NCBI RefSeq assembly: GCF_003010495.1
Contig: NZ_CP027570.1
Location: 1,410,001-1,442,000 of the forward strand
Source: Megasphaera elsdenii DSM 20460
GTDB lineage: Bacteria > Bacillota > Negativicutes > Veillonellales > Megasphaeraceae
DNA length: 32,000 nucleotides
Direction: 5' to 3'
A program made the position numbers and the translations under genes. The notes beneath the pieces are model-generated. The model had not been told where the DNA came from and did no database searches. It saw nothing but the letters and a program-made list of their open reading frames with translations. Below, one piece after another: positions 1 through 28,858 of the stretch. Each line of letters starts with the position of its first letter. The stretch's first letter is position 1.

Positions 1-91
1 ATGTAGGGGACGCCATGTAGGGGACGCCCAGAGGGCGTCCCGCAGTTCGCGTCCCGCAGGCCGCAGTTCGCAGTTCGCAGGGGCGTCCCGC
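1..91. repeat. Short-word repeat and hairpin block: 14-nt direct repeat atgtaggggacgcc x2 (1-28), hairpin gggacgccc-aga-gggcgtccc (21-41), heptamer cgcagtt at 41-47, 62-68, 69-75
   Basis: Read directly from the sequence; the window edge may truncate the block. Confidence 0.7.
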
Positions 92-140
92 GGCTCCCCT
101 GATAGGGGAGCTGGCCGCCGAAGGCGGTCTGAGAGGTTGC
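92..140 (+). repeat. Half-unit of the multi-hairpin repeat family, subfamily B (ggctcccctgataggggag-ctggccgccgaaggcggtc-tgagaggttgc)
   Basis: Two adjacent hairpins (ctcccct/aggggag; gccgcc/ggcggt) followed by the gagaggttgc tail; near-identical copies at 9204-9252 (reverse strand) and 28608-28656. Confidence 0.85.
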
Positions 141-3500: not shown

Positions 3501-4049
3501 CTCGTCGACACGGAAGTTTACTCCAACACAGGCGGTCAGTCGTCGAAAGCTACGCCAATCGGGGCTGTCGCTCAGTTCGCTGCATCGGGCCGCAAGTTCA
3601 ATAAGAAAGACTTGGGCCGTCTGCTCATGACCTATGGCCACATCTACATCGCTCAGGTCGCCCTTGGTGCCGACCCGAACCAGCTCATCAAAGCCATTAA
3701 AGAAGCAGAAGCCTACAATGGTCCGTCTATCATCATCGCTTATGCACCGTGCATCAACCACGGTATCAAAGGCGGCATGGGCAATGCTCAGCACGAAATG
3801 AAACGCGCCGTAGACTGCGGTTACTGGCACCTCTATCGCTATAACCCGCTGCTCAAAGAAGAAGGCAAGAACCCCTTCATCCTCGACTCCAAAGAACCGC
3901 AGCAGTCGTTCCGCGAATACCTCATGGGCGAAACAAGATACGCTGCCTTGACGAGAACCTTCCCGGACATCGCCGAAGAACTCTTTGCCAAAGCTGAAGA
4001 ATTTGCTAAGAAGAAATATGAAACCTATAAGGAATTGGCTGATCAATAA
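519..4049 (+). CDS. nifJ: Pyruvate:ferredoxin (flavodoxin) oxidoreductase, single-polypeptide PFOR
   Basis: Translation has YPITPSSPMAE near the N-terminus, two 4Fe-4S ferredoxin motifs (CVQCNRCSLVCP, CYSCSACVNACP) and the TPP-binding GGDGWAYDIGYGGLDH. Start moved from ORF-track 414 to the ATG at 519, which follows RBS aaggggag. Confidence 0.95.
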   Translation: MIKQIVKTLDGNEATADVAYNFTEVATIYPITPSSPMAEHVDVWSANGRKNLFGQPVKLVEMQSEAGAIGAVHGASETGSLCSSFTASQGLMLMIPVMHRLSGELKPVVLHIAARTVGTHTMSIFGDHSDVMGCRNTGWAMLCSASVQECADLAAVAHLSTIKGRVPFMHFFDGFRTSHEIQKIKMLPAEELGKLIDRDALYHFKHTGLNPEHPVMRSTVTNPDMFFQSREANNPWYQRLPYIVQDYMDQISELTGRPYHLFDYYGVPDAEHVVIAMGSVTGAIQETIDKLCKEGKKVGFIQVHLYRPFSLEHFMKAMPDTVRTITVMDRTKEPGALGEPLYEDVCAAISHVKQDVTVLACRYGLSSKDVPPASINAVFTNMDSLQPKNHFTLGIIDDVTHHSLADVPITVDTEGTISCKFWGFGSDGTVGANKNSIKIIGDNTDMYVQAYFEYDTKKSGGVTKSHLRFGKKPIRATYYIKSADFLACHKQAYMGTYDIVSEIKDGGIFLLNCSWDKDDVANHLSNKVKRQLASKHVRFYIINATKIAEEIGLGSNRTNTVLQAAFFKLANILPIDDAVKYMKDAIAKTYLAKGEQVIAMNQAAVDRGISDIVEVTVPEEWKDLPSDPVVEDTRDIPDFIKKVVEPANLQLGDTIPVSEFVPYADGSYPLGTTKYEKRGIASTVPEWDLEKCVQCNRCSLVCPHAAIRPYLVTADEKAKAPADFKTKKAIGKGLEDYEFRIQVSPLDCYSCSACVNACPAKALTMKPLETQRHESADWDYAQTLPEKHTTLDKFSVKGSQFHQPLLEFNGACAGCTETAYMKILTQLFGPRMIVANATGCTQAWGSAMPSIPYTTNCEGFGPAWSNSVFEDNAEFALGMSLSMEQQRDAIRIKSEELMDLTDGALHDAIKAWIDSIGVANEGEVTEGISRTYIKELMAAHLTGRAADLQKEILAHKEHIIKKTIWMYGGDGWAYDIGYGGLDHVLAMNANVNIMLVDTEVYSNTGGQSSKATPIGAVAQFAASGRKFNKKDLGRLLMTYGHIYIAQVALGADPNQLIKAIKEAEAYNGPSIIIAYAPCINHGIKGGMGNAQHEMKRAVDCGYWHLYRYNPLLKEEGKNPFILDSKEPQQSFREYLMGETRYAALTRTFPDIAEELFAKAEEFAKKKYETYKELADQ

Positions 4050-4113: not shown

Positions 4114-4180
4114 CGTATACTCGGATTCAGATGCGGCAAAGCCGCGACAGACTCAAAAGAAGGACATCGTCTCGTGAACC

Positions 4181-4357
4181 AAGCCTCCCCTCATAGGGGA
4201 GGTGGCCGTCAGGCCGGAGAGGTTGCAGTTCACTAATATCTATCGATAATCAAAAAGCAACCTCTCAGTCAGCTGGCGCTGACAGCTCTCCTATGAGGAG
4301 AGCCGTGGGGAAAGCCTCCCCTTATAGGGGAGGTGGCCGTTAGGCCGGAGAGGTTGC
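4181..4357 (+). repeat. Upstream part of the multi-hairpin repeat array: right half-unit (4181-4226), 30-nt spacer (4227-4256), full 101-nt unit (4257-4357)
   Basis: Unit is gcaacctc + hairpin gtcagc/gctgac + hairpin gctctcct/aggagagc + linker + hairpin cctcccct/aggggagg + hairpin ggcc/ggcc + gaggttgc; matches the units at 4765-5125. Confidence 0.9.
4223..4250 (+). promoter_or_regulatory. Weak promoter-like signal in the first repeat spacer: TTGCAG-16 nt-GATAAT
   Basis: Only this spacer reads gataat; the three downstream spacers read gatgat. A transcript from here would carry unit 4257-4357 as the 5' leader of the DUF559 mRNA. Confidence 0.25.
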
Positions 4358-4385
4358 AGTTCAATATATTTTACAAGGAGGTTCT

Positions 4386-4757
4386 ATGAAAACGCTTCCC
4401 TATTCTAAAGAAAATGTATCATTTGCCCGTTCATTAAGGAAAAATATGACCAAAGAAGAACGTCACTTATGGTATGATTTTTTACGGACGTATCCAGTGA
4501 AATTTTATAAACAACGACGAATTGGTAATTATATTGCCGATTTCTATTGCAAAGAAGCAGGGTTCATCATTGAATTAGATGGTGGGCAACACTACGATGA
4601 AGCCGGTATGGAGTCAGATCAAGAACGGACAGCCGTATTAGAATCCTATGGATTGACGGTCATCCGTTTTACCAATTTAGATATCCATAAAAATTTTAGA
4701 GGAGTTTGCCAAACTATTCATCAATACGTCAATGAGCATAAAGGATGTTCCTGGTGA
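4386..4757 (+). CDS. DUF559 domain endonuclease-like protein (Vsr-like PD-(D/E)xK fold, COG2852 type)
   Basis: Translation shows the family hallmarks: ARSLRKNMTKEERHLWYDFLR, FYKQRRIGNYIADFYC, IIELDGGQH, VIRFTNLDI. Strong RBS aaggagg lies 6 nt upstream of the ATG. Confidence 0.85.
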   Translation: MKTLPYSKENVSFARSLRKNMTKEERHLWYDFLRTYPVKFYKQRRIGNYIADFYCKEAGFIIELDGGQHYDEAGMESDQERTAVLESYGLTVIRFTNLDIHKNFRGVCQTIHQYVNEHKGCSW

Positions 4758-4764
4758 TAAAAAA

Positions 4765-5125
4765 GCAACCTCGCAGTCAGCCTGCGCTGACAGCTCTCCT
4801 ATGAGGAGAGCCATGGGGCAAGACTCCCCTTATAGGGGAGGTAGCCGTCAGGCCGGAGAGGTTGCAGTTCACTAATATCTATCGATGATAAAAAGCAACC
4901 TCGCAGTCAGCCTGCGCTGACAGCTCTCCTATGAGGAGAGCCATGGGGCAAGCCTCCCCTCATAGGGGAGGTGGCCGTCAGGCCGGAGAGGTTGCGGTTT
5001 ACCAATATCTATCGATGATAAAAAGCAACCTCGCAGTCAGCTGGCACTGACAGCTCTCCTATGAGGAGAGCCATGGGACAAGTCTCCCCTCATAGGGGAG
5101 GTGGCCGTCAGGCCGGAGAGGTTGT
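4765..5125 (+). repeat. Three tandem 101-nt multi-hairpin units (4765-4865, 4895-4995, 5025-5125) separated by 29-nt spacers; period 130 bp
   Basis: Direct alignment by eye; units differ by only a few substitutions, and spacers read agttcactaatatctatcgatgataaaaa or a close variant. Confidence 0.92.
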
Positions 5126-5179
5126 CTTTCAAATCCTCCATTTTTTATGATACAATAAAAGAAAAAAGCAGGTGATAGT

Positions 5180-5755
5180 GTGAAGAGAATATGGCTCATC
5201 CGTCATGGCGAAAGTATTGCCAATGCCGGCGAAGCGACGCAGGATCATCGCAATATTCCCTTGTCGGAACTAGGCCTCAAGCAGGCCCAGTCGCTGGCCT
5301 TACAGATTCCCCGGCGGCCGGACCTGATTGTCACGTCGCCTTATCTTCGGGCGCAGCAGACGGCGATGTGTACGATCGGGCGGTTTCCCGATACGGTGAC
5401 GGGAATTTGGGATTGCGTCCATGAATTTGTGTATTTAGCACCGGCGACGTGTGTCGGGACGACGTCGCAGCAGCGGCGGCCGCGGGTCATCAATTATTGG
5501 CGCAAACTCGACCCGGATTACATCGACGGCGAAGGTGCCGAAAGCTATCGCCAGCTCATCGGGCGCATCGAACGGACTTTGTCGTTGCTGCAGCGGCGGC
5601 CAGAACAATTCATCCTGGTCTTTACGCACGCCCAGTTTATCCGCAACCTGCTCTTGGTCTACGAAAATCCTGGCAGGCCGGTAGAAGAATACATGGCTGC
5701 TTTTCGCCGCAGCCGCCCGGTCCATAACGGGCAGATTGTGGAAATTACGATGTAA
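5180..5755 (+). CDS. Histidine phosphatase family protein (phosphoglycerate-mutase-like)
   Basis: N-terminal LIRHGES catalytic motif; GTG start preceded by gcaggtga. Confidence 0.75.
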   Translation: MKRIWLIRHGESIANAGEATQDHRNIPLSELGLKQAQSLALQIPRRPDLIVTSPYLRAQQTAMCTIGRFPDTVTGIWDCVHEFVYLAPATCVGTTSQQRRPRVINYWRKLDPDYIDGEGAESYRQLIGRIERTLSLLQRRPEQFILVFTHAQFIRNLLLVYENPGRPVEEYMAAFRRSRPVHNGQIVEITM

Positions 5756-6216: not shown

Positions 6217-7396
6217 ATATCCGACCTAACCAAAACGATAAAACTTCGCATACATGTTACTCCTGAACAGGAAGTATTGCTCCGTCAAATGACGGAACAA
6301 TACCGTCAGGCTTGCAACTTCGTGTCTCAATACATCTTCGACAATCAGTTCGACTTGACTTACCAAAGCCTCAACAAGAAACTGTATAGTGACCTTCGTG
6401 GCTTGTTCGGTTTGAAGTCTCAATTAGCCCAGTCTTCTATCAAGACGACGATTGCCAGATACAAGACAGTAAAACAACAGCTCTTCCAAAATCCTTATAG
6501 ATATAAGGATGAGGATGGCCGCTGGCAACGCATCCCTAAGACTTTGGAATGGCTCTGGAACCCCGTATTCTTTCGCCGGCCGCAGGCTGACTTAGTCCGC
6601 AACCGGGACTACAGCTTCGTTGATGACGGGCAAGTCCTGTCCATCAATACACTCGGAAAAAGAACCAAATGTACCTTCGAAGGCGAACATTTCGCTGGAT
6701 ACCTTAATGTTTCCTATCAACTCGGTACTGCCAAACTGGTCGAACTGAAAGGGAGATGGTATCTGCATATCCCTGTTACCAAGGCGGTCGAAGATTTCCA
6801 GAAGGAGTGCGTCCGCCATGTCGTCGGCATCGACCGTGGACTTCGTTTCCTTGCAGTCAGCTATGACGAACAAGGCAAGACGAAGTTCGTCTCTGGTAAA
6901 AAGATTGCCACCAAACAAATCAGCGAAGCGCAAACTCAAAGCCATTTCTGGGCGAGAGAACCGTTGGATGTCTGATGTGAATCATCAGATTTCTAAGACA
7001 CTCGTACAGAAATACGGCAAGGATACGCTTTTCGTGCTCGAGGACCTTGCTGGCGTCAGCTTCGAGGAAAGCAATCTTTCCAGAACCGCGAAACAGAACT
7101 ACGATTTGCGGAGCTGGAGTTTTTACCAGTTGGAGCAGTTCTTGACATACAAGGCTCACGAGAACCGTTCGGAAGTCCTGAAAGTGTCTGCGAAGTACAC
7201 CTCCCAGCGTTGCCCGAAATGCGGTATTATCCGCAAGGCGAACCGCGACCACCATAAGCACCTGTATAGTTGTCAGTGCGGATACAAATCCAACGACGAC
7301 CGTATTGGAGCTATGAATATCCAGCTTCTCGGGACTATGTGGATTTCTGGGGACACCCATCCTCGATATGAACGAGTAACAACTACCTTGGAGTAA
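6217..7396 (+). pseudogene. tnpB: TnpB / IS200-IS605 OrfB-type RNA-guided nuclease, disrupted (no canonical start for the conserved N-terminus; frame break near 6900-6930)
   Basis: Frame 1 encodes (I)SDLTKTIKLRIHVTPEQ...VVGIDRG (RuvC-I Asp, codon 6832-6834). Frame 2 continues KSAKRKLKAISGRENRWMSDVNHQISK...FVLEDL (RuvC Glu), the CPKCG...CQCG zinc finger and NDDRIGAMNI (RuvC-III Asp). No ATG/GTG/TTG lies in frame between the stop at 6181 and the TTG at 6277; no tnpA is nearby. Confidence 0.8.
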
Positions 7397-7505: not shown

Positions 7506-7566
7506 TTGTAGTTTGTAGAAGAGGGCTTTAAATTAAAAAACTTTCACTAAAAACTACAAACTGCAA
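7506..7566. repeat. Heptamer-word inverted arms ttgtagtttgtag (7506-7518) and ctacaaactgcaa (7554-7566) around an AT-rich loop containing ggctttaaattaaaaaac
   Basis: 13-bp complementarity with one T-G position; same architecture at 9056-9122 and 28737-28823. Confidence 0.75.
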
Positions 7567-7577
7567 ACTTAATACTC

Positions 7578-7613
7578 AAAAAGGCGCTGTCTTCATGCGA
7601 CAGCGCTTTTTTT
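7578..7613. terminator. Conserved bidirectional terminator cassette aaaaaggcgctgtc-ttcatgc-gacagcgcttttttt
   Basis: 8-bp GC stem flanked by an A-run and a T-run; abuts the stop codon of the minus-strand nitroreductase gene (7615) and follows the TnpB relic on the + strand. Confidence 0.8.
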
Positions 7614-9013: not shown

Positions 9014-9047
9014 AAAAGAGGCTGTCGCATTAAGACAGCCTCTTTTT
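9014..9047. terminator. Conserved terminator cassette in inverted orientation: aaaagaggctgtc-gcattaa-gacagcctcttttt, followed by gagtatcaagtttgtag
   Basis: Reverse complement reads ctacaaacttgatactcaaaaagaggctgtc..., nearly identical to 148-201; terminates rpsD. Confidence 0.85.
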
Positions 9048-9055
9048 GAGTATCA

Positions 9056-9122
9056 AGTTTGTAGTTTTTAGTTTGCAGCAAATGGTAAAAAAATTAAAAC
9101 CAGCTTCTACAAACTACAAACT
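9056..9122. repeat. Heptamer-word inverted arms agtttgtagttt (9056-9067) and aaactacaaact (9111-9122) around a loop containing ggtaaaaaaattaaaacc
   Basis: 12-bp perfect complementarity; further ctacaaact words extend to 9136. Confidence 0.75.
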
Positions 9123-9143
9123 CCGTACTACAAACTATAAAGT

Positions 9144-9203: not shown

Positions 9204-9252
9204 GCAACCTCTCGGACCGCCTTCGGCGGCCAGCTCCCCTATAATGGGAGCC
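9204..9252 (-). repeat. Subfamily-B half-unit of the multi-hairpin repeat, reverse orientation
   Basis: Reverse complement ggctcccattataggggagctggccgccgaaggcggtccgagaggttgc matches 92-140 with a few substitutions. Confidence 0.85.
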
Positions 9253-9270
9253 TTTCGTCAAACATTCATG

Positions 9271-9309
9271 CCACGAGTCACGAGCTACTAGCCACGAGCC
9301 ACGAGCCAC
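9271..9309. repeat. Tandem heptamer words ccacgag / tcacgag
   Basis: ccacgagtcacgagctactagccacgagccacgagccac lies directly beside the stop codon (9314-9316) of the minus-strand gene. Confidence 0.65.
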
Positions 9310-28302: not shown

Positions 28303-28337
28303 GCGCTGATAAATAGAAACCGCTCCGACCTGTACTC

Positions 28338-28384
28338 AAGCCTCCCTTTATAGGGGAGGTGGCCCAACGGGCCGGAGAGGTTCC
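28338..28384 (+). repeat. Subfamily-A half-unit of the multi-hairpin repeat (aagcctccctttataggggaggtggcccaacgggccggagaggttcc)
   Basis: Same order of hairpins and tail as 4181-4226. The second hairpin is ggccc-aac-gggcc instead of ggcc-gtca-ggcc, so it is still self-complementary. Confidence 0.8.
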
Positions 28385-28471: not shown

Positions 28472-28548
28472 GACTCGGTAGCTCAGCTGGATAGAGTGAC
28501 TGACTACGAATCAGTAGGTCTAGGGTTCGAATCCCTACCGGGTCACCA
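28472..28548 (+). tRNA. tRNA-Arg (anticodon ACG), CCA encoded
   Basis: Hand-folded cloverleaf: acceptor gactcgg/ccgggtc (one G-U), D arm gctc/gagt, anticodon arm actga-ctACGaa-tcagt, T arm taggg-ttcgaat-cccta, 3' a-cca; 77 nt. Confidence 0.92.
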
Positions 28549-28584: not shown

Positions 28585-28607
28585 GTTGTGTTTGATGTGT
28601 GATGAAA

Positions 28608-28656
28608 GGCTCCCTTTATAGGGGAGCTGGCCGCCGAAGGCGGTCTGAGAGGTTGA
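28608..28656 (+). repeat. Subfamily-B half-unit of the multi-hairpin repeat
   Basis: ggctccctttataggggagctggccgccgaaggcggtctgagaggttga matches 92-140. Confidence 0.85.
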
Positions 28657-28736: not shown

Positions 28737-28823
28737 GTTTGAGGTTTGATGTATGATGTTTGAGGCGATTGCTTTAAATTTAAAACCATCCACATCAAAC
28801 ATCAAACTTTCAACTTCAAACTC
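28737..28823. repeat. Heptamer-word inverted arms (gtttgagg/gtttgatg words at 28737-28765; catcaaa/cttcaaa words at 28791-28823) around a loop containing gctttaaatttaaaacc
   Basis: tgatgtttga (28754-28763) is exactly complementary to tcaaacatca (28796-28805); further partial pairing is possible in several registers. Confidence 0.75.
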
Positions 28824-28858
28824 AAAAAGAGGCTGTCTTCATGCGACAGCCTCTTTTT
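28824..28858. terminator. Conserved bidirectional terminator cassette aaaaagaggctgtc-ttcatgc-gacagcctcttttt
   Basis: Abuts the stop of the minus-strand lipoprotein gene (28862); same core as 165-201. Confidence 0.85.

Follow-up and report, generated by a model that had tools for sequence, protein, structure and literature searches.

A DUF559 nuclease gene of Megasphaera elsdenii lies in an array of inverted hairpin modules that may be its cognate repeat

The 32,000-nucleotide stretch of the Megasphaera elsdenii DSM 20460 genome analyzed here (hereafter, the window) contains, between a pyruvate:ferredoxin oxidoreductase gene that ends at 4049 and a histidine-phosphatase gene that starts at 5180, a tandem array of hairpin repeats whose only open reading frame (ORF) encodes a DUF559 nuclease. 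The array has a period of 130 nt, which Tandem Repeats Finder located at 4755-5124 (2.8 copies, 95% matches), and a repeat search of the window gave five aligned 130-nt copies starting at 4121, 4252, 4760, 4890, and 5020. Four 101-nt units (4257-4357, 4765-4865, 4895-4995, and 5025-5125) are preceded by a half unit (4181-4226); the positions that the initial annotation had given all hold on re-reading. We found a conserved unit of ORF and inverted ~50-nt modules, derivatives of it that lack the ORF, and modules dispersed through genomes that carry a single gene of this family. On balance, we lean toward reading the locus as a DUF559 (Vsr-fold) nuclease gene within an array of its own cognate repeat, a pairing like that of repetitive extragenic palindromic (REP) sequences with REP-associated tyrosine transposases (RAYTs).

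Three gaps in the array (4227-4256, 4866-4894, and 4996-5024) are short spacers that read AGTTCA-CTAATATCTATCGAT(G/A)AT(C)AAAAA. The fourth gap (4358-4764) begins with AGTTCA, ends with TGATAAAAAA, and contains an AAGGAGG ribosome-binding site (RBS) and the ORF (4386-4757). Written out, the filled slot is GAGGTTGC-AGTTCAATATATTTTACAAGGAGGTTCT-ATG...TGG-TGATAAAAAA-GCAACCTC and the empty slot is GAGGTTGC-AGTTCACTAATATCTATC-GATGATAAAAA-GCAACCTC, i.e., a spacer corresponds to the 5′ leader of the gene, AGTTCAnTAnTAT, fused to its 3′ trailer, GATGATAAAAA. Since leader and trailer remain and the ORF is gone, as an internal deletion would leave them, the spacers are evidently ORF-deleted copies of the gene-bearing slot, and the relationship of one filled to three empty slots that had been proposed for this array is upheld.

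A covariance model (R1) was built from an alignment of 20 upstream half units from diverse lineages. It describes a module of ~50 nt that consists of AAAG, a first hairpin CCTCCCYT/ARGGGAGG, a second hairpin of free sequence, and a tail GGAG(A/G)G(G/A)TTG; the first hairpin is of the polypyrimidine/polypurine type, with CTCCC/GGGAG as its core, and the G-rich tail reads GAGAGGTTGC. Because the left halves of the four 101-nt units match R1 over its full length on the minus strand (37-48 bits), the 101-nt unit is an inverted pair of this one module, not the single four-hairpin entity for which it had been taken, and the two half-unit subfamilies that had been distinguished are variants of the same module. 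R1 counted 13 modules in the window, 9 in the array and 4 solo at the four other intergenic sites where half units had been reported. Eight lie on the plus and five on the minus strand, four of the latter being the left halves of the 101-nt units; the half-unit pattern itself has 8 matches in the window, against 0.00 expected. With L for an inverted module and s for a spacer of 29-30 nt, the array runs R s (L R) GENE (L R) s (L R) s (L R); the notation (R s L)(R GENE L)(R s L)(R s L) R describes it just as well, with three ORF-less inverted pairs and a single ORF-bearing one arranged head to tail (Table 1). The module that opens the array, R0, is not present in the sister genome MGYG-HGUT-00612, and a promoter-like site of the histidine-phosphatase gene (5128-5156) lies just past the module that closes it.

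We then considered the fold of these repeats. For the 101-nt unit, four hairpins enclosed by a closing stem, GCAACCTC/GAGGTTGC, are predicted, with an energy of -61 kcal/mol (z = -5.0), and no shuffled sequence was equally stable. In the consensus structure of the 20 half units, which consists of two hairpins, 8 of 13 pairs hold their pairing through changes on both sides. Among 93 distinct modules from other loci, 98.3% of cells were paired, compared to 83% in shuffles and ~50% in slid controls, a value that is somewhat inflated by the fitting of this alignment to the model but that leaves a large margin; here, compensatory changes occurred in 9 of 13 pairs, with 189 double-change cells. Such covariation of the hairpins indicates that the selected form is a folded single strand or a cruciform. 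The module alignment also contains a three-way covariation, in which the closing pair of hairpin 1 (C-G or G-C) tracks the tail variant (CGGAGGG or CTGAGGG), the module end that bears the RBS being usually of the first type (C-G, CGGAGGG). The tail resembles the 3′ arm of hairpin 1, so that an alternative pairing is possible. Rfam gave no relevant match, only hairpin matches at chance level, for the window, for the array at a relaxed threshold, or for 13 homologous loci. One near-threshold match, to the Caulobacter small RNA CC2171 (69.7 bits against a gathering score of 75), was seen at L209:30-200, just 5′ of the module pair beside an Azospirillum DUF559 gene.

The protein itself matched PF04480 (DUF559) over residues 10-115 with 99.8 bits against a curated cut-off of 20.6 (E = 9.9e-29), in keeping with its first assignment. 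The nearest solved structure by sequence is PDB 3HRL (E = 4e-19), which comes from the Neisseria DUF559 protein family (NGO0050). For the predicted structure (mean pLDDT 74.5), the top matches were again 3HRL and also 3R3P, the catalytic domain of the homing endonuclease I-Bth0305I (Foldseek E = 8.5e-5, TM-score 0.62/0.76); the structural match to Vsr was weak (E = 0.2). Residues D52, E63, D65, and H69, invariant in 21 homologues, are presumably catalytic. With these residues present and a dN/dS of 0.05-0.25 between species, i.e., purifying selection, the gene can be taken to be functional. PADLOC matched no component of a defence system, giving only a weak nuclease-domain similarity to a methyl-directed restriction enzyme (E = 2.7e-5), and the defence, phage, and NCBI family libraries yielded generic nuclease similarity and no transposase family. 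No sigma-70-like site was found by a promoter scan 5′ of the gene (leader 4358-4385). A homologue search returned at least 8000 candidates, and close homologues were absent from the plasmid collection searched, where the best match was 47% identical. To our knowledge, DUF559 is among the most widespread of the uncharacterized nuclease families, its function not being known despite structure 3HRL and a member in Escherichia coli K-12, ycjD.

The array turns over quickly between strains. We compared ten M. elsdenii contigs with an identical histidine phosphatase, among which the number of full units ranged from 0 to 3 upstream of the gene and from 2 to 4 downstream; all architectures differed, except for two contigs that matched the window. 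Over all strains compared, the downstream number ranged from 1 to 4. One strain has lost the DUF559 gene and kept a single L-R unit (L215:2735-3010), the deletion junction coinciding with a TAT microhomology shared by a spacer and the loop of the first module. The strain polymorphism that the initial annotation suggested looking for, in both unit number and presence of the gene, is thus found. In three sister species, which share ~92-94% identity with the window, this gene occupies the corresponding position and has a single unit on either side. Since copy number varies in nearly every strain and repeated transposition or insertion is not needed, unequal recombination between the direct repeats, or slippage, is the best explanation of the tandem copies. 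In one Megasphaera sueciensis genome (L120:3001-4123), two DUF559 genes with their modules lie in tandem with a 754-bp period, other strains having one. A search for module insertions and excisions in orthologous blocks from four Megasphaera genomes showed differences in the array alone.

The association of gene and module extends well beyond this species. DUF559 proteins 55-65% identical to that of the window abound in Ruminococcus, other Clostridia, Pectinatus, and Megasphaera, and many of the metagenome contigs that carry them are short (500-1000 bp). From 80 metagenome loci of Firmicutes and the loci of three named homologues, we obtained 40 clusters at 90% identity. By nhmmer, a module lies at most 150 nt upstream of the ORF in 27 of the 40, and an inverted pair with its tails toward the ORF is found in 18-20; inverted arms of 45-60 nt score far above shuffles in ~25 of the 40 lineages. 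Model R1 detected 224 modules in these 380 kb. Module density is 4.75 per kb within 170 nt of the ORF compared to 0.18 per kb elsewhere in the same loci, a 26-fold difference and thus a strong local association. A conserved block of ~475 bp, with the exact start AAAG(C/G)CTCCC and the stop GGGAGCCTTT, recurs in at least seven unrelated genomic contexts. In its commonest form, the tail of the upstream module, GGAGGGATTG, ends 2-5 nt before the ATG and provides the RBS GGAGG, and the downstream module starts, with CAATCCCTC, within the last codons of the ORF, which is why many homologues end in QSLSQ or QSLRQP. Two candidates for independent contexts of identical proteins were rejected, the Pectinatus case being an insertion sequence (IS) within a module and the M. 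sueciensis case the tandem duplication described above. In the former (L118:520-1393), an rve-family IS lies inside the second hairpin of the module beside the DUF559 gene.

Relatives differ in that the block is wholly present or absent. An element of the Ruminococcus type lies between purH and purD (L122-L124), while in relatives whose PurD is 96%, 92%, and 87% identical purH and purD are adjacent, 87-278 nt apart, and without a DUF559 gene (L223-L226). No module was found anywhere in these empty loci, even with search filters off. The simplest reading would be an insertion in one lineage; the spacer differs in every lineage, and the ancestral junction cannot be rebuilt from it. The nearest relative without the gene holds in this spacer another palindromic insert of ~190 nt (L223:1722-2000; GCGCACTCTCAGCGGAGC ... 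GCGGAGCTGAAAGAGTGCGT), and the spot has therefore been struck by unrelated elements.

Seven distant loci were also read, namely DUF559 matches from the plasmid collection, which also includes some mislabeled chromosomes; they were chosen before their flanks were viewed. Their repeats are known from direct reading and a repeat search, as R1 does not detect these single-hairpin versions. In all seven (E. coli [ycjD], Neisseria, Deinococcus, Sphingomonas, Azospirillum, Synechocystis, and Photobacterium), a hairpin with a CTCCC/GGGAG-type core and a G-rich or C-rich tail lies beside the gene, and the design thus recurs across phyla. At the Deinococcus locus, an interval of 361 nt is enclosed by an inverted repeat of 56 nt (95% complementary); in Sphingomonas, the gene lies between two copies of a 115-nt unit; Azospirillum carries one copy downstream of the gene and an inverted pair upstream; Photobacterium has three 148-bp tandem units downstream; and Neisseria gonorrhoeae has a 72-nt direct repeat on either side. 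E. coli ycjD runs into the first of three repeat copies in the ycjD-fabI spacer. YcjD is 44% and NGO0050 38% identical to the protein of the window, and both genes are single-copy, the flanking repeat being present in a median of 15 copies per E. coli genome (in 5401 of 5426 genomes) and in 21-25 copies per N. gonorrhoeae chromosome. The question raised by the initial annotation, whether DUF559 homologues lie beside such repeats, is thus answered positively in other genera and phyla. Judged from these comparisons, gene and inverted module pair constitute a discrete genetic unit that is gained or lost as a block and is found across the Firmicutes, with related units in other phyla.

We know of no enzyme or origin proposed, in about 30 years, for short interspersed repeat families such as E. 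coli BoxC. The repeat flanking ycjD is probably of this family, which was first described next to envM/fabI. A size of ~50-56 nt and 22-32 copies have been given for BoxC (PMC2267715), figures compatible with the ycjD repeat.

Modules are also dispersed in Megasphaera. An exact-pattern scan of one genome per species, the counts of which are lower bounds, gave 115 blocks, nearly all in this genus. Three sister genomes contain at least 34, at least 62, and at least 71 modules, compared to one DUF559 gene each, and most of these modules are solo. Many other loci have inverted pairs without an ORF, their tails pointing inward and their spacers, 0-51 nt long, being unrelated to the gene. The initial annotation had likened the layout to REP/RAYT, and the likeness extends to one DUF559 gene per genome, inverted flanking modules, and dozens of dispersed copies. 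In the representative M. elsdenii genome, the scan gave at least three matching blocks, none homologous to the window, compared to the 8 exact matches in the 32-kb window of the type strain. The commonest solo subtype lies in a longer repeat, TGATGAAATCTCGCAACGGGCCGCA-[module]-AAGGTCGGCCCCTACGCACAAGGCCG, at 20 or more loci of the sister genomes (e.g., L005, L019, L031, L036, L041, and L048), which suggests a separate, recently amplified composite element.

Table 1. Modules, spacers, and gene of the array, and solo modules of the window
Feature	Position	Strand	Description and basis
Module R0, opens array	4180-4226	+	Hairpin CCTCCCCT/AGGGGAGG, hairpin GGCC/GGCC, tail GGAGAGGTTGC; model R1 51.4 bits, full length
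Spacer 1, 30 nt	4227-4256	+	Leader and trailer without ORF; direct reading, alignment
Module L1, inverted copy	4257-4307	-	Model R1 47.8 bits
Module R1, directly 5′ of gene	4311-4357	+	Tail toward ORF; model R1 53.5 bits
Gene leader	4358-4385	+	RBS AAGGAGG; direct reading
DUF559 ORF, 372 bp, 123 aa	4386-4757	+	PF04480; Vsr-like PD-(D/E)xK nuclease fold
Module L2, directly 3′ of gene	4765-4815	-	Tail toward ORF; model R1 40.6 bits
Module R2	4819-4865	+	Model R1 38.5 bits
Spacer 2, 29 nt	4866-4894	+	ORF-less slot; direct reading, alignment
Module L3	4895-4945	-	Model R1 40.6 bits
Module R3	4949-4995	+	Model R1 51.4 bits
Spacer 3, 29 nt	4996-5024	+	ORF-less slot; direct reading, alignment
Module L4	5025-5075	-	Model R1 36.8 bits
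Module R4, array end	5079-5125	+	Model R1 49.3 bits
Solo module	89-140	+	Second-hairpin variant GGCCGCC/GGCGGTC; model R1 52.1 bits; intergenic
Solo module	9204-9255	-	Model R1 46.8 bits; intergenic
Solo module	28337-28384	+	Model R1 52.1 bits; intergenic
Solo module	28605-28656	+	3′ of tRNA gene (28472-28545); model R1 55.5 bits; intergenic

How could one enzyme gene come to be accompanied by so many modules? In M. elsdenii, the unit would have been amplified head to tail, the extra copies would have lost the ORF through internal deletion, and unequal recombination among the direct repeats would keep altering copy number and could remove the gene. The nuclease, we propose, recognizes the module when it is folded, be it as single-stranded DNA or as a cruciform, and introduces nicks or cuts at it; when the break is repaired, modules, and at times the gene as well, would be copied either to new sites or into module pairs already present. 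Breaks and repair of this kind may both maintain and spread modules and gene, the outcome being one vertically kept enzyme gene and tens of dispersed modules. As PD-(D/E)xK hydrolases cannot perform strand transfer alone, any spread must run through host repair.

This limit of the enzyme class is one of several points that speak against the gene being paired with a repeat of its own. The three ORF-less slots adjoining the gene stay empty in all strains compared, which argues against efficient homing; the sole gene-less allele (L215) is a microhomology deletion and not a clean excision; and solo modules occupy the same sites in species ~92-94% identical, so that no recent movement is seen. No detectable module was found by nhmmer in 7 of the 40 Firmicute clusters, no target-site duplication or direct repeat was present at block boundaries in the contexts compared, and Deinococcus, Pectinatus, and one Clostridial lineage have their modules in reversed orientation with respect to the ORF. 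Furthermore, the commonest solo subtype, embedded in a longer conserved repeat of its own, could move by other means.

The same observations bear on whether the locus is a conventional mobile element. A strict transposon model with fixed end orientation is rejected in view of the orientation flips, and a strict reading as an IS with miniature inverted-repeat transposable elements (MITEs) is weakened by these flipped ends, by the lack of target duplications in the contexts compared, by the single copy per genome, and by the neighboring slots being empty. Of the autonomous element with MITE-like derivatives that had been suggested for the array, the internal deletion is supported, but the strict model fits poorly, since orientation is not universal. 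Homing has a precedent in the fold yet meets the empty-slot problem too.

Among the rival explanations, RNA-level control survives best, though we regard it as unlikely. Here, the modules would be structured untranslated regions (terminators, stabilizers, or a 5′-3′ clamp hiding the RBS) that restrain a potentially toxic nuclease, and solo copies would be ordinary terminators or stabilizers, or decayed remnants. In many lineages, the RBS GGAGG of the tail, 7 nt before the ATG, is complementary to the downstream module start CAATCCCTC, which overlaps the stop codon; the hairpins covary and tolerate G:T wobbles; and as no promoter was found before the gene, read-through transcripts from the oxidoreductase gene would include the array. 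However, 22 G:T compared to 3 A:C mismatches were counted on the module's own strand (small numbers, and a model that favors G:U) with the same bias upstream and downstream of the gene, the downstream modules lacking an mRNA-sense pattern, although selection on the mRNA would be expected to reverse their bias. Solo modules lie 22 versus 15 relative to neighboring genes, without a clear sense bias, and 18 lie between convergent compared to 7 between divergent genes, counts that come from crude gene calls with 28 of 110 modules in doubtful ORFs. Selection on the hairpins in the mRNA sense, considered as a candidate, is unsupported by the wobble test, and the orientation test, with its crude gene calls, likewise gave no support. 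Because the wobble bias is equal on both sides of the gene and solo modules have no clear sense bias, there is mild evidence that the modules may act at the DNA level. The flips of orientation relative to the ORF, the tens of copies far from any DUF559 gene, and the lack of an Rfam family match also count against control at the RNA level.

A quite improbable alternative is that the modules are no more than REP-like repeats whose spread is due to other machinery or to errors of replication or recombination, and that DUF559 genes land between them at palindromic hot spots without specific recognition. Intergenic regions are indeed mosaics in which several short repeats of unrelated kinds are combined, such places have also received an IS element and palindromic inserts of other kinds, and recombination alone accounts for the changes in array size. 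Mere proximity fits poorly, however, with the same module design beside DUF559 in seven of seven distant taxa and most Firmicute lineages, with block boundaries that are module ends, with an ORF whose start and stop are built into the modules, with the 26-fold module enrichment beside the ORF, and with purH-purD sites that lack modules as well as the gene. A system like type III toxin-antitoxin, in which the repeats would be transcribed and cut to small RNAs that neutralize the nuclease, as ToxI does for ToxN, would account for a small nuclease gene adjoining a tandem array of structured repeats, here and beside the Photobacterium homologue, but is highly improbable given that most homologues have one inverted module per side and no array, that the fold is that of a DNA nuclease, that the array is free to vary in length and, in one strain, a unit persists although the gene is gone, and that PADLOC matched no known toxin or defence family. 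Together, cross-phylum recurrence and dispersed copies are explained by no rival as well as by a nuclease paired with its cognate repeat.

That pairing may be general. We tentatively suggest, at something short of an even chance, that small DUF559 proteins (YcjD, NGO0050, and thousands of Firmicute homologues) are the cognate enzymes of bacteria-wide repeats with a hairpin and a G-rich tail, probably including BoxC, and make up a second, RAYT-independent repeat-plus-enzyme system that works through structure-specific PD-(D/E)xK breaks and host repair. If true, DUF559 would gain a function and orphan repeats such as BoxC an enzyme, each with a testable function; the REP/RAYT arrangement would have evolved more than once, with unrelated enzymes; and the breaks of metagenome assemblies around DUF559 genes would be explained. 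DUF559 genes are enriched 14-fold among predicted invertible segments (PMC9881135), for which flanking inverted modules would account.

Other repeats share the intergenic DNA of the window, which looks like a mosaic of several repeat kinds. Tandem runs of heptamers (ACGAACC, ACTACAA, CTACAAA, GCCACGA, GTTTGAG, and TCAAACT) and 14-15-mers adjoin intrinsic terminators and solo modules (320-342, 7546-7569, 9107-9141, 9270-9309, 28737-28765, and 28795-28826; also 1-80), and the same heptamers adjoin solo modules in sister genomes. An 88-nt repeat with 78% identity, at 7525-7612 and 28771-28858, combines heptamer runs with a terminator hairpin, GGCTGTC...GACAGCC, that has a T run behind it; copies of a related terminator are found at 166-202 and 9014-9047. 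A gene for TnpB (IS605 OrfB / Cas12f-like) at 6277-7396 is split over two overlapping ORFs and is probably a frameshifted pseudogene. Other M. elsdenii strains have TnpB versions of 384 aa and 341 aa, and the ~1.5-kb segment is wholly missing in the sister species.

Several known systems resemble the locus in part. In ToxIN (type III toxin-antitoxin), too, tandem structured repeats adjoin a small nuclease gene, whereas the present repeats flank the gene on either side in inverted orientation, the protein has a DNA-nuclease fold, and most homologues have no array. Vsr endonuclease belongs to the same superfamily branch, and some sources name the DUF559 protein so, but the structural match is weak, no cytosine methyltransferase gene adjoins the locus, and the Vsr N-terminal region is lacking. 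The homing endonuclease I-Bth0305I (PDB 3R3P) shares the catalytic fold and the setting of a small, selfish-looking nuclease gene in intergenic DNA; in contrast, the gene here does not lie in an intron or intein, its putative target is a multi-copy hairpin repeat, and adjacent empty slots are left unfilled. As in an IS with its MITEs, a block of ~475 bp has a single ORF between imperfect inverted repeats of ~50 bp, inverted pairs of 100-150 bp are found without an ORF, and the block is wholly present or absent between relatives; in contrast to them, there is no known transposase family, no target-site duplication was seen, each genome has one ORF-bearing copy, end orientation is reversed in some lineages, and the ends are kept as covarying folded hairpins, not as duplex binding sites. 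E. coli YcjD and Neisseria NGO0050 are homologous proteins whose genes are likewise flanked by hairpin-plus-tail repeats dispersed 15-25 times per genome, the repeat there having one hairpin and not two and being invisible to R1.

The closest parallel is with REP/REPIN-RAYT (TnpA-REP) of Proteobacteria, where a single-copy, vertically inherited enzyme gene is also flanked by inverted short hairpin repeats, and tens of copies of that repeat, as singlets or inverted doublets, are scattered through intergenic DNA; the tandem array of modules in alternating orientation, with two kinds of conserved linker, recalls BIME-2. In contrast to REP, each module combines two hairpins with a G-rich tail, a GTAG-type 5′ tetranucleotide is lacking, and the RBS and stop codon of the ORF are built into the modules. 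The enzyme here is a PD-(D/E)xK (Vsr-fold) hydrolase of ~120 aa and not a Y1 HUH transposase of the IS200/IS605 superfamily; its chemistry therefore cannot match that of REP/RAYT, and the locus is not a member of that family. In the literature on DUF559, ycjD, COG2852, Vsr-like proteins with inverted repeats, and BoxC, we found no paper tying the protein family to repeats. The locus thus appears to be an undescribed variant of the repeat-plus-cognate-enzyme kind.

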